Assembly (NCBI GenBank): GCA_965153455.1 | Contig: OZ234493.1 | Location: 17,598,213-17,662,212, forward strand | Source: Sphagnum compactum | Taxonomy: Eukaryota | Direction: 5' to 3' | DNA: 64,000 bases | Part shown: piece by piece, positions 25,601 through 31,600 of the stretch | How positions within the stretch are numbered: the first letter of the stretch is position 1 | Layout of the letters: each line of letters begins with the position of its first letter | Made by a program: the position numbers and the translations under genes | The notes under the pieces: model-generated | Told to the model about the DNA's origin: nothing | What the model saw: the letters and a program-made list of their open reading frames with translations, nothing else | Database searches by the model: none

Positions 25601-28600
25601 TTGAACACGTCTAGGAACTAGGTAGTCACATGTTAATTTGTCTCTCCTCTTTTCAGACATGGTAATTACTTGAATCTTGGTTGAGTAGTAAATAATTTTC
25701 CCCTTTGTGACCAGGCTGTGTACCATATGCCAACTACTGAAAATGATGTACCTTCCAACAGTATCCCACTAGCATTGCAGAGCCTGTTTTACAAAATACA
25801 GTACAGCGATTCAAGTGTTGCAACAAAGGATCTCACAAAGTCATTTGGATGGGACACATATGACTCTTTTATGCAACATGATGTACAGGAGCTCAACCGG
25901 GTTCTTTCTGAGAAGCTTGAAGACAAAATGAAGGTATGGTCATGTTACTCCAGGTCTGACAGGTCTAGCTTCCCTCTGCTAAAGTTCCATGCTGAGGTAG
26001 GTTGTGTGAGCTTTTCACAGGGAACTGCTGTTGAAGGCACAATACAGCAGCTTTTTGAAGGGCATCATATGAACTACATTGAATGCATCAATGTTGATTA
26101 CAAGTCAACACGCAAGGAGTCATTCTACGGTACAGATTTTTTTGCTATTGTGGATGGAAGGTGTAATTTTGCAGTTCAGTGCTTCATTATCTGCAATTTC
26201 TGTGAGTTTGCAGATGTGCACAGGCTGATAATTTTCTCCTTGCAGACTTGCAATTGGATGTGAAGGGGTGCAAGGATGTATATGACTCGTTTGACAAATA
26301 TGTTGAAGTGGAAAGGCTTGAGGGGGACAATAAGTACCATGCCGAGCAGTTTGGCTTGCAGGTCATATCCATCATATGTGGGCTTGCATTTCTAATTTGT
26401 TCTCACAAGGTTACTCCAGTCATGTGCATGCTGGAGGGAATATTGTGCTGCCATGCCTCCTCTTTGGTACCAGTCAAGAATTGGTGATATGAGTATGTTC
26501 AAGCACCATGTTGTTTTGTGACACCGTTAGTCTTTCATAGCGTTGTTATCAGACTTGTACAGCACGACCATGCCAGATGTTTTGCGCAGATCAACAAGCT
26601 GTTATCAGGATGATGAGGGTTTTCAGAGGGTATTGCTAGTTGATTTTTGAAATCTTTACAGTTGAGTTGGCTTTCTATGATGCAGGATGCTAAGAAGGGA
26701 GTTCTTTTCATTGATTTTCCACCTGTCCTACAACTTCAGCTGAAGCGGTTTGAGTATGACTTCATGAGAGATACTATGGTCAAGGTGTGTAACAAATAAC
26801 CACTCATATGCATCCCTCATCAGAGAAGATTACCCAATTGTTTTGTTCTGGGTGTTCAATCAGAGTGATCTGCTGGGATTTGTGTTGAAGCATATTCCAT
26901 ATTTTGTCTATGTTGTTGTATAACTATTGAGTTGTATCCTATGTGGGCAAATTGTGCCCAGACTGTGCCATTGGGAAAGTAGTCATATTCTACAAAGTTG
27001 CATGCACTTTTCTGTACTTCTACTTCCATTGGTAGGGCTTGAACCTGTTGGAAGTCCAGAGTAGTGATTGTGAGGGTTCCAATTTCCACTGTTTTAGCAG
27101 TCCTACCTTTGGTCATGTAATATCAGCCAACATCATGACTGAGTATTCCTGTTGTTTCTGGAAATGCAACAGAAATGCGGGATGTAGATTTTGTATAGTG
27201 GTTTGCCCAAAATTTTGGATGGATTAGATCCAAATTTAATGGGGCACTTCTGTACAGTCTAGTTTTGTCTGAATCTGAATGTTGCTAGTAAGTTTGAAGC
27301 TAGGTGCGGCCCTTGTTTTCTTTTTCTTTGTGTGGCTTGGAAGTAAAAACCCCATGAAGCCTAGATTTACTAATGCTAGTTCTGCTTCTCTCTCAAAAGT
27401 TTCTAAAATTCTCAGGAGTTTCTAAATGGATAATCTCCTTCTGTAAAGCTTTCTTGCTGGTGGTCAATGACTGCTGGTTCGCCAAGTTATCAAAGGAGCT
27501 GATGTCCCACTGAGAATAGTTGACTATTTGGAGTAGTCATAGACTTCACGCTCATGAATCATTCAAGAACTGACAAATCTTCTGTTACACTCCTTTTGTT
27601 TCCCAAGTATTTATATGAAGATCAATCTATCAGATTTGAAAGCTAGAAGGAATTTGTAGTGAATAATTTTTTTAGTAGGATGTGTAGATCTCATCTTTTT
27701 TGTGTCTTGTTGGTTCAGAGGTCAGCTTTTGAACTGAGGACACAAAAAATTTTGATTGAAGGAGGATGGTATTTGGTCTACAGAGTCCCTCCATAGCTTT
27801 AAGCTAGCAAATGATGCAGTTTTATCTTCTTGGCCACATTTCCTGTTAGGTAACTTGTTCCTCTTGTGCAGTCAGTTGTTTTGTGAAGTGTTCTTCAAAT
27901 GACTTTGCAATTTCTTGGACACTTTTGACAAGTTTTGTCAGCTGGAATATGCAGATAGTAACATGATATCTATGCCTCATGTGGATTCCAATATTTTGGA
28001 TTCTGCAAAAGTTGGAGTAGTCAAGTTTTCTAAGTTCTTAAGGCTTTCCAGGTCCAAAGAGTTCTGCATAGCTGCAATGGCAAGCTTAATTGATCTACTG
28101 AAGAAAAATGTTACTTTCTGCTGAGTGGGTCCAGAGCTTTGCTTGTCAAAGAAAGATTTCTGTTTGGTTTTTCTGCCTTCTGAATCTTCGAAATGATCAT
28201 TGCAAAGGTTTCTTACTTCTAGGTAGGGAGGTGTTCTAAACCCATTTTGTCCTCTAAAGGTCTTGTTTTTAAGGTTCTCCACCCTTGTTTCTCTCTCTTT
28301 CCTTCCTTCTTCCTCACATGGACTTTTTCTTCTTCTCTTTTTCTCCTTTTGGTGTTCCTCTTTCTTCTTGGATTTCTGAGTTTTTTTTATCCTAGCCAGC
28401 ATTATGGCCAAGTTTTGTCATTACCACCAGTCTTGTGACAGAAACTCAGTATGTTGGTCAATGTTTGATGGTGGTGGCATATACCCAAAAACATCTTGCG
28501 AGTTGAATTGTACTTCTAAAGGCTTCTCTTGTAATTTCTTGGATCTACCTGTGAATCAAAGTCCTCAAGGTATATTGTGTGATTACTTTGACAAACGTTC

Positions 28601-31600
28601 TCAACCAGAGTATGCAGGTATTGAAATGATTTGCGTGCCTCTTATTCATTCGAATATCTCAATTACTGCTAAGTTGGGAGTTATCAATAGTCAATTTTGA
28701 GGCTTTGTAGTTGTAAAGAGTTCTTTGTCTCTCAGATGGTCAGTCTTATTGTCCTTCTGAAACATAAAGGCTACTGTCTAAAGATTCTGTTAAAGAGGAC
28801 TAGCCTTTTTGGAATTTCAGCATTTGGAGTATTCTGAATGATTCTGTATAAAGTCTTGCAAGTGGGGAGCTTCTTGTAAGCTCACTTGGTCTTTGTTCTT
28901 CTCTGCTGTCCTTTTTTGTGTGTTTTGTCTATCCTGTTGTGTTTTTCTGTTTTTTGTTATCTCCTTGTGTTGTTTGTTGCTAGCCAGTAGCATGGCTGAG
29001 TCTTCTTGCTGCTTCCTGAATTGTAGTAGAAACTTAGTATGCAGGTTAGTGTTTTCACTGACCTTTACCCACTGTAGGGAGCTGATGAAGTCAGTGGGAA
29101 AGTTGTGATAGAGAAGTTACTATTATACATGCTACTGTTGACGGTCCCTGAACAGGTGTGAGACTGGCACTGTTGTTCATACTGCTTTCATGTTGTTTTT
29201 GTTTCTTGGTCCTTTGTTCTCTGTTTCACCTTTCTTTCTTTGGAATTCTCTGTGGCTGGTTGGAGGAGTGTTAACCTTGCTTTGCCTTTTCTTAATAGTG
29301 AGAATGGAGATTTCTCGATTCTCATGAGAAATATATGTTGGTTAATGTTTGACATTGACCTCCATGCATCATTGGGAGCTGATGAAACCAGTGGGGATGT
29401 TGTAATAAGTTGTCAATACCCTGCATGTTGCTGTTGAAAGTCCCAGAACTTGGTTATGACTGTTGCTGCCTGTCAAACCGGTCCTCCATTTTGCTTTTGG
29501 TCTTGTTTTCTCTTTGGTCTTTTCTTTGGGTTGGCTTCCTCTTTCATGCTTGCCACTTAGGTGTTGTTATTCATAATGAATATGATAGTCTCAGACTTTG
29601 TGAGTGACACTTGTATTTGGTTACACATTTTGGCACTTGGTCCCATGATAAATGAAAGAACATCTTGGTGGTTTATCCATCTCATCCAAATATTGCTTGC
29701 CTTGGCAGATCAATGATCGGTATGAGTTCCCTTTGCAACTTGATTTAGATAGAGAGGATGGCAAATACCTCTCTCCAGATGCAGATCGAAGTGTTCGTAA
29801 TCTTTACACCTTGCACAGGTCTGCAAAACTCCCCTGTTCTCTAACTAAACAGAATTGTTTCTGTATTCAGAGCATCTGATTGTAAGACATGTTCACATTC
29901 ACTTTATGGGGAGTGTTACAAGACAAGTTCATTTTGGGTATATGTCTCACCAGATTTATGTGGTGCTTGTTTTGTCTATTGCAGTGTGCTTGTTCATAGT
30001 GGTGGAGTACATGGTGGACATTACTATGCTTTTATCAGACCAACATTGTCTGACCAGTGGTAATCTACACACAAACATGACTGAGATTCTGTCTGCTTAG
30101 CATTCTTTAACTTGTTGAATTGAGAATTTTTGTCCATTCAGGAGCTTCTATTCTGTAGCAAGGGAAAAAACTATCTCCCATCTTTGTTTCATTAGCTGGA
30201 GTGGCTCAAAAGTTTTTTCCAGCTCTGCATAATGTTAGTTTGGAGCCCAGATTCCTCAGGCACAGTATCTGTGAAATCTTTGATGACTTGACATTGTTGA
30301 GTTGGAGCACAAACTGTGTGGACCAACTGAAACCATCCTTTTGTGGTTCAGCTTTGTTCCCATGAGAATTTTTTTTCAAGTCAACACAAATCTTTTGGAG
30401 CCAGACTAGCTTTGTCTTTCATCTGTACTGATAGTCAAATGATAATAATTGCAACAAGGGCTGGGAGACTGATTTCCAAGTATTTGGTGGAAAGCTGCAG
30501 AGCAGCTTAACTTGTGAGGACTGCTTGTTTGACAACTGATTAAATTCATGGAATAATTTCCTAGAATTCATGTTAGCACCAGGAATTGCAGAAGTGCTTG
30601 CCCGCGCTGGTGTCATTGAATTTCTAATTTTCTTGCTGGAATTCTGGCAGGTATAAGTTTGATGATGAGCGTGTAACAAAGGAGGAACTCAAGCGTGCCC
30701 TTGAAGAACAGTATGGAGGTGAAGAAGAGGTATATACATATATGGCTGTCTCTCTATTTGCTGTTGCAATACTACACATATGGTTCTCTCTCTACACTTG
30801 TAACTACATATGAAGCAGAGGTGAAGATGTAGACTTTGGGTGTATTATGAGATACAAAGTTCTATTGGGTTGCATTTGGTTGAGTATTGCAATCTACCTT
30901 GCAGCTTCCACAAACCAACCCTGGATTCAACAACACACTGTTCAAGTTCACTAAATACTCAAATGCATATATGCTGGTGTACATCCGGGAAGCAGACAAA
31001 GACAAAGTTGTTTGCAATGTTGATGAGAAAGACATTGCAGAGCATCTACAGGCAAGAGACCCATAATTGAGATCATAGGGTACATAATGTTACTGGAAGG
31101 ACCAAATCAGCTTTCTGCTGTCTACAAGCTCACTGATTTCACTCCTGCTTTGTTTGGAAGATTTTACTAGGTTAGGAAATTGCTTCATTCATATGATGTC
31201 AGATGTGTCTGGTATGAGAACCATTGCAGAGTAGACATAACCCATAGTTTAATTGATTGTGCCCAGATAAGGTTGAAAAAGGAGCAGGAGGAGAAAGTGA
31301 GGAAAAGGAAGGAGAAAGCAGAAGCTCATCTGTACACTATCATCAAGGTAATGACCACATGTTTTAGCATTGCTCCTCCATGTTTTAGCATCGCTCCTCC
31401 ATTTGGTAGATTCTGTTTTCTGATCCTACTTTTTTTGCCAATTATCCTAGGTTGCTCGGGATGTTGACCTCTCAAACCAAATTGGGAAGGACATTCACTT
31501 TGACCTTGTCGATCATGACAAAGTTTGTAGCTTCCGTGTTCAAAAGCAGACACTTTTCACTCAGTTCAAGGTGTGTGGGCTACTTCAGGGCTTGAGAGTT

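Follow-up and report, generated by a model that had tools for sequence, protein, structure and literature searches.

An intron of a UBP12/13 (USP7-like) gene of the moss Sphagnum compactum contains pieces of the reverse transcriptase (RT) of Penelope-like elements (PLE), including two copies of the RT thumb. This raises two questions: which kind of element left this debris, and how did two copies come to lie next to each other? We analyzed a window of 64,000 nucleotides around this gene (contig OZ234493.1 of assembly GCA_965153455.1, positions 17,598,213 to 17,662,212 of the forward strand), to which all coordinates without a prefix refer, together with copies of the same family elsewhere. An initial annotation of the window had proposed a PLE of Naiad/Chlamys type, or one devoid of endonuclease (EN), present as a partial tandem. 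Our results indicate that the locus is very probably the dead debris of a high-copy PLE of the Chlamys type, and that the 3' untranslated region (3' UTR) of this element carries a candidate hammerhead ribozyme of type SGC, i.e., with its three blocks S, G, and C in a non-circular order. Comparisons with published work refer throughout to the accessible parts of the papers cited.

The intron runs, as initially annotated, from GT to AG between two exons of UBP12/13 type, the upstream one ending in MVK and the downstream one beginning with INDRYEF (Table 1). All its PLE pieces are in the sense orientation relative to the host gene; the PLE motifs named in the annotation are present, all on the + strand, and both thumbs end in the tail LFG.SAF..F.MI..KV, followed by a pyrimidine tract. 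A tblastn search of the window with a natural RT frame of the family (714 aa) confirmed that these are PLE reverse transcriptases. In the older copy, A, positions 27294-27875 match amino acids 301-496 (E 5e-12), and amino acids 497-610, with the catalytic motifs, are deleted. In the younger copy, B, positions 28470-28858 match amino acids 574-714 (E 8e-50). The stretch 27039-27227, initially taken as a single fragment, turned out to be a chimera. Its first part (27034-27130) is indeed the CxC/GHV region of copy A and matches an old relative (L100:963-1054), which in turn can be aligned to the CxC region of the young element. The remainder (27125-27226) stems from a third subfamily, C: it is a piece of its 3' UTR and takes the place of an internal part of copy A.

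Copies A and B are only 62-67% identical and represent different subfamilies. The thumb of B is a high-copy repeat, found at 39 other places with 78-85% identity among the best 40 of 474 candidates. Compared with 19 fetched copies (77-86% identity), B is matched to at least position 29275 by 18 of them, most reaching 29322-29349, and a sharp 3' end near 29333 is common to the copies of this repeat. A direct repeat (18 of 19 bp identical) surrounds B, and A resumes after it, up to a 3' end that is uncertain and lies somewhere in 29570-29610. Among 19 loci related to A, 12 (10 distinct places) read straight across the site of B, and the other seven are truncated or deleted there. Because B has its own 19-bp duplication and the relatives of A are continuous across the site, we conclude that copy B is nested in the 3' UTR of the older copy A. 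The partial tandem of the initial annotation would instead make the two thumbs a single insertion of the pseudo-LTR kind. Their adjacency and shared orientation fit this idea, and tandem layouts resembling pseudo-LTRs, each of which may or may not go back to a single event, exist in three other loci of the family (L071, L118, and L121). No such layout is found at the UBP12/13 locus, where each copy has closer relatives elsewhere, and the duplication of B, the resumption of A, and the low identity refute the idea, to which we attach practically no probability. Judging from their sequences, both copies are dead.

To characterize the family, we reconstructed the full element by walking upstream through genomic copies. 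It is ~4.3 kb long and has one reading frame, followed by a 3' UTR of ~460 nt. The frame encodes, in this order, a GIY-YIG domain without CCHH, a linker, the motifs CxC, GxKF, and DK, an RT with a long IFD, the thumb, and a stop. The EN has the motifs VIYVIY..YVGQT, then R, H, E, and N, with no cysteines between the two motifs, and the translations reveal neither CCHH nor a CX2-5CxxC zinc finger in or upstream of it. Its match to the Pfam GIY-YIG profile (E 0.0011, 19.7 bits) is below the cut-off of 22.6. The Pfam RT family matched none of nine proteins (window fragments and RT frames), so that the identity of the RT rests on motifs and homologues. The other motifs read CACxC..GHV, RGTKFR, and MDKC (DK with C as third residue), and 99-100 aa separate the RT motifs A and B across the IFD in moss-type proteins, vs ~83-92 in most Naiad-type matches. 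In one locus (L130), EN and RT share one frame with a single stop between them. The EN is found across the genome (150 scored matches of 191 candidates). Downstream of the RT there was no EN match in 19 of 19 copies and the stop comes right after the thumb, in agreement with the initial annotation, which had suggested collecting genomic copies in search of an N-terminal GIY-YIG. Truncation at the 5' end is clear across the family; among 20 copies examined, 13 have a recognised 3' end, and in six of these a target-site duplication of 13-19 bp adjoins the truncation point.

These features are those that define Chlamys: N-terminal GIY-YIG without CCHH, CxC, GxKF, DK, long IFD, and no C-terminal EN (PMC8557442). 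With the Chlamys elements of minimal organisation in that paper, e.g., Chlamys-1_meVir and Chlamys-1_cAtm, the family has in common an N-terminal GIY-YIG lacking CCHH and an upstream zinc finger, as well as CxC and GxKF; by eye, the moss EN resembles that of Chlamys-1_meVir, and the linker motif FGYRD resembles Chlamys-1_cAtm. With these elements it also shares a DK motif without a fixed third residue, the long IFD, the lack of a C-terminal EN, 5' truncation, and the size of ~4.3 kb. It differs from them in its land-plant host, its clear target-site duplications (13-19 bp), the fact that no microsatellite target was seen, and a 3' UTR that holds a complete set of hammerhead blocks.

In a full HMMER search, cysteine-free proteins with an N-terminal EN rank first, and an EN of this cysteine-free kind is seen in the nearest distant full-length relatives. 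The EN search of longer proteins gave one match. A moss host had been proposed as well, and the only species-named close match is a Sphagnum protein. In a FastTree phylogeny of 69 RT regions (sampling all 27 cysteine-free, 22 of 41 cysteine-bearing, and 17 EN-unknown proteins), the moss proteins form one clade with a 52%-identical protein (P0007) among those with a cysteine-free EN. One might still think of PLE-X, the endonuclease-less offshoot of Chlamys in Chara and Selaginella (PMC8557442), which has an RT of Naiad/Chlamys type, CxC, a hammerhead-like motif, and an early-diverging plant host. There is no EN match in the window (best tblastn E 2.9), and the accessible parts of that paper mention moss BlastP hits for the endonuclease-less PLE-X only; in our searches, the lack of reports from mosses noted in the initial annotation holds for EN-bearing Chlamys but not for PLE-X. 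However, long copies continuous with the same RT carry the N-terminal GIY-YIG, and hence the Chlamys half of the annotated alternative stands and the endonuclease-less half does not. Among the A-like copies, an old one (L115) has a match to the EN as well. The N-terminal extension of PLE-X (CxCX1-8C) has, by eye, no counterpart in the moss family, which is dispersed rather than located in 28S rDNA, and whose hammerhead blocks are not in type I order. Being contradicted already for copy B, a PLE-X identity is extremely improbable. The family could also be a Naiad acquired from animals by horizontal transfer: Naiads have the same domain order (EN-CxC-RT) and, by eye, some of their 3' ends carry non-circularly permuted hammerhead blocks; in a word-indexed search the distant matches are mostly cysteine-bearing, Naiad-type proteins (22-29% identity), and in the HMMER search the best named distant match (36%) is from the non-plant protist Amoebidium. 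Yet Naiad ENs have CCHH and CX2-5CxxC, with a DKA motif (PMC8557442), whereas the moss EN lacks both and the motif reads DKC; cysteine-free proteins lead the HMMER ranking, and the moss RTs are outside the cysteine-bearing clade of the tree. Such a transfer is therefore very improbable, if slightly less so than PLE-X.

The preferred placement, judged by these sequence features, is that of a Chlamys-type PLE with an N-terminal GIY-YIG. Two observations weigh against it: no fully intact open reading frame was seen among the copies examined, and the tree, built without named Chlamys or PLE-X references, is weakly supported at depth (0.65 at the node joining the moss clade). Taken together, we regard the identity as a Chlamys-type PLE and the nesting of B in A as nearly certain. 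The Amoebidium matches (P0150 and P0300, from a transcriptome of Amoebidium parasiticum) are themselves Chlamys-type proteins with a cysteine-free N-terminal GIY-YIG, and no Amoebidium-like host was seen in the accessible part of the Chlamys table of PMC8557442.

What does the 3' UTR of this element contain? The alignment of subfamilies A, B, and C has three fixed blocks in the order S-G-C: GUC between two short strands, GAAA, and CUGAUGA. In the predicted pairing, stem III has 6 bp (S with G), stem I has 5 bp (S with C), and stem II has 2 bp beyond an A-A mismatch; block C lies inside a helix of 7 bp (29068-29074 with 29092-29098). The core bases CUGAnGA, GAAA, and UH are present in this order at 13 of 13 positions in the three subfamily majorities, and the H17 position is only C or U. 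Identity among the majorities reaches 50 of 53 positions in the blocks, vs 65 of 128 elsewhere in the domain. The majorities are based on 30 copies, 10 for each subfamily, taken from a set of 120 segments. In these copies, the strands of stem I, of stem III, and of the stem I-II helix are complementary in 87-91% of the cells, and the whole structure is paired in 86% of the cells, vs 30-45% when slid; two-sided changes fall mainly in the outer helices.

We searched for all six block orders with a relaxed descriptor. SGC was the sole order found, once in the window (29002/29029/29082) and in 13 of 87 UTR segments, many of them partial or decayed; the circular orders CGS, GSC, and SCG had no match in the element, the window, or the 87 segments. 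Shuffled 4.3-kb elements gave any order in 4 of 400 cases and SGC in 1 of 400, and shuffled UTRs gave 0 of 2000, counts that are optimistic because the descriptor was fitted after the sequence had been seen. Searches for exact block patterns gave 479 and 298 matches in the genome and 0 with controls. A scan of 26700-29800 with Rfam (E up to 5) returned no hammerhead and three chance matches. A type I reading with a downstream GUCCC as the partner of stem I, from RNAalifold on 8 sequences, was rejected because the stretch between the blocks has no conserved GAAA and the GUCCC partner is missing from subfamily C. From these patterns, the 3' UTRs of the three subfamilies probably form a hammerhead fold in the non-circular order S-G-C. 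The prediction that this fold cleaves itself is more tentative, and we would place it a little short of an even chance.

Known type-SGC hammerheads come from metatranscriptomes and were shown to cleave; in the accessible parts of the same study, no non-circular hammerhead is reported from the genome of a known organism, except for a weak GCS candidate (PMC10085705). The moss candidate shares with HRIMA-1 and its variants the S-G-C order, all core bases, a 5-bp stem I, a stem III, and an extra helix flanking block C. These ribozymes have a stem II of 5 bp with G-C next to the core, a linker of 3 nt, covariation, and demonstrated cleavage, whereas the moss motif has a 2-bp stem II, the A-A mismatch, hairpins in both linkers, and no core covariation. 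Eight Naiad families are flagged 'HHR_half_core' in PMC8557442, with core halves 35-50 nt apart on either side. We read by eye the last 600 nt of seven of them, with names assuming that the file order equals the metadata order (S5 of that paper). Naiad_Parc, Naiad-3_Nbra, Naiad_Hpol, and Naiad_Smim have complete type-CSG hammerheads, with 5-6 bp in stem I, 4-5 in stem II, 6-12 in stem III, and 8-16 in the extra helix, and with stem sequences that are all different. Naiad_Ovul has an SGC with 6 bp in stem I, 5 bp in stem III, and, like the moss motif, only 2 bp in stem II; Naiad_Esco has an SGC without stem II; Naiad-3_Dst has no permuted hammerhead in this region. Among five unflagged Naiads read in the same way, Obim repeats the arrangement of Ovul and the other four lack a complete motif: no permuted hammerhead was seen in the 3' 600 nt of Omin, Adux, and CGi, and only blocks S and G in Sdum. 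By this manual reading, permuted hammerheads do occur in the Naiad/Chlamys clade, which raises the odds for the moss motif.

Besides the optimism of the shuffle counts, several observations weigh against a ribozyme. Compared by hand, the moss motif fails the published SGC pattern (PMC10085705) on four counts: it has AGAAA vs CGAAA and CUGAUGAAG vs CUGAUGA(U)G, an S-G linker of ~18 nt vs 0-8, and a G-C spacer of ~40-70 nt vs 0-15. Stem II has only 2 bp past the A-A mismatch, is not closed by G-C, and has a rival in a local hairpin, for which covariation is seen; in the minimum-energy fold the stem II strand stays in this hairpin, and the GAA of the core is paired with UUC. Among the moss subfamilies, stems I-III hardly vary and give no real covariation in the core, and the single two-sided change in stem I (4 cells) resembles CpG decay. 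Attempts to obtain covariation from more divergent families gave none: in 80 metagenome loci the main piece is always at least 70% identical to the young element, a genome search with the distant RT P0204 (472 candidates, 125 of them scored) brought up no distinct family, and a scan of prokaryote genomes found no divergent family. The consensus sequences of 11 algal Chlamys, read by eye over their final 600 nt, showed no permuted hammerhead. In 4,475 poly(A) reads (~12% of one run) there is neither an end pile-up nor a lasting depth step near the predicted site (~7696), this library being fragmented and hence a weak test of cleavage ends; the only end pile-up is at 4683, and the depth peak at the predicted site comes from other subfamilies. 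The domain might thus be a non-catalytic fold, e.g., an RT recognition site, in which S and G are the paired strands of a hairpin, with CUGAUGA as either a conserved loop or what remains of a lost ribozyme. The UUC-GAA pairing, the covariation confined to non-core helices, the short stem II, and the reads without cleavage ends would fit such a fold. It leaves unexplained, however, why the five bases before CUGAUGA are complementary to the five that follow GUC, why H17 is restricted to C or U, and why nearly all block positions are fixed, and clean CSG and SGC arrangements are present in related Naiads. We consider a non-catalytic fold unlikely, though far from negligible, and retain the SGC hammerhead as the better candidate.

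The history of the locus is as follows. The intron first received an old copy A, which decayed as parts of it were deleted and the subfamily C piece was gained; a younger, 5'-truncated copy B then inserted into the 3' UTR of A, making the 19-bp duplication. By analogy with the biochemistry of PLEs, the GIY-YIG domain would nick the target, and the RT would use the nick to copy the RNA of the element, beginning close to the 3' end of this RNA. Both activities, GIY-YIG nicking and target-primed reverse transcription, have been shown in vitro for the Poseidon element of anole (PMC11167929). Early termination of reverse transcription could explain why most copies are 5'-truncated, and staggered nicks could give the duplications of 13-19 bp. 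As for the 3' UTR, we propose that it folds into a multi-branch domain, in which the hairpin with blocks S and G docks via the 5-bp stem I onto the CUGAUGA loop, forming the type-SGC hammerhead. This ribozyme would cut after GUC, processing transcripts of the element or read-through transcripts.

Table 1. Features of the PLE debris in the UBP12/13 intron (window coordinates)
Feature	Position	Strand	Evidence or remark
Host intron, UBP12/13 (USP7-like) gene	26785..29708	+	GT at 26785, AG at 29707-29708, flanking exon translations
Copy A, decayed CxC / GHVISAN region	27034..27130	+	70% over 98 nt to L100:963-1054, E 6e-9
Subfamily C 3' UTR fragment (start of structured domain)	27125..27226	+	80-90% identity, best 40 non-self matches of 625 candidates
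Copy A, frameshifted N-terminal RT half (P.KPRF up to IFD)	27260..27880	+	tblastn aa 301-496, E 5e-12; blastn
Copy A, RT thumb and C-terminus	27918..28210	+	tblastn aa 611-713, E 7e-16
Copy A, 5' part of 3' UTR	28211..28468	+	pyrimidine tract; decayed hammerhead blocks S and G near 28390-28450
Left target-site duplication of copy B, 19 bp	28450..28468	+	18/19 identical to 29334-29352
Copy B, younger 5'-truncated insertion	28469..29333	+	RT end 28470-28858, 3' UTR, sharp 3' end
Structured 3'-UTR domain of copy B	28985..29137	+	closed by covarying helix 28985-28994 with 29128-29137
Candidate hammerhead block S	28996..29007	+	stem III strand, GUC triplet (predicted cut after 29002), stem I strand
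Candidate hammerhead block G	29026..29037	+	stem II strand, GAAA (G12 at 29029), stem III strand
Candidate hammerhead block C	29068..29098	+	stem I strand 29077-29081, CUGAUGA 29082-29088
Right target-site duplication of copy B	29334..29352	+	direct repeat of 28450-28468
Copy A, rest of 3' UTR with its own block C	29353..29610	+	continuous with 28467 in A relatives; nhmmer match 29312-29499

The window holds further traces of the family: a decayed RT thumb, also in the sense orientation, in another UBP12 intron (33411-33650, +), and a 3' end of subfamily C (3267-3499, -). Its other repeats are unrelated: a 507-nt tandem pair at 82% (48635-49666), a short-period tandem array (40589-40976), a 264-nt palindrome (53700-53963), and a 220-nt dispersed pair (8421-8635 with 13380-13599).

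Elsewhere, the long copies L066-L070 are 97-98% identical. They do not represent a recent burst, an explanation that we rejected, and correspond to one insertion that was duplicated together with its host segment. This segment of at least 8 kb is present five times (C17, C12, C5, C7, and C318 of G000), at least three of them near chromosome starts, with the full-length element in one intron of a gene that we take, from its motifs, to be CWC22-like; it represents either segmental duplication or a large mobile unit that carries cargo. In one of these loci (L069:3600-8150), the poly(A) reads of run X24 cover 30 of 30 bins and are strongly one-stranded (799 vs 1.2 in the deepest bin). They are sense if the library follows the usual convention, and read-through from the host gene could be their source. 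The labelled RNA data sets in which the family occurs are mostly moss or plant metagenomes. Around ten near-identical, internally deleted EN-RT copies are found on the small chromosomes C20 and C19 of G000, eight of them on C20 (L082, L084-L089, L112, L119, and L120). Four loci (L110, L111, L116, and L122) contain a mosaic repeat, in which Chlamys fragments (two EN pieces from distinct subfamilies, short stretches of RT, and a 3' end) are combined with an unrelated open frame of 330 aa. This repeat may be a young non-autonomous derivative, because many places matching the EN score identically. A gene model for a TPR protein of Sphagnum compactum (P0081) holds a 73%-identical RT piece, which is either an exonised element or an error of the model.

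The UBP12/13-intron locus itself is ordinary nested debris. Its interest lies in the element, which by its sequence is a Chlamys-type member in a new host group, and to which the candidate permuted hammerhead in the tail adds novelty. In the accessible literature, EN-bearing PLEs of land plants are described only as Dryads that conifers gained horizontally (PMC8557442, PMC9033089), and our literature searches, which lacked most subscription journals, found no report of EN-bearing Chlamys in mosses or Sphagnum. A Chlamys family with young copies in a moss hence widens the range of EN-bearing PLEs in land plants. No report of permuted hammerheads in PLEs was found either, including in the accessible parts of PMC13725137 and bioRxiv 10.64898/2026.07.22.740005, and the reason why Naiad/Chlamys lack canonical hammerheads was left open in PMC8557442. 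We tentatively propose, with a little less than even confidence, that many Naiad/Chlamys elements carry non-circularly permuted, pseudoknotted hammerheads, which would be the first active SGC and CSG ribozymes in eukaryotic genomes, and that EN-bearing Chlamys are native to land plants. The SGC type would then occur in the moss family and in the Naiads of octopuses, and the CSG type in those of nematodes and spiders. The moss genome would have hundreds of copies, their version being a conformationally switched ribozyme inside a multi-branch 3'-UTR domain. If the half-core motifs of Naiads are non-circular hammerheads, an unexplained gap in the biology of PLEs would be closed; and, if this is true, standard ribozyme scans have overlooked a class in eukaryotic genomes.

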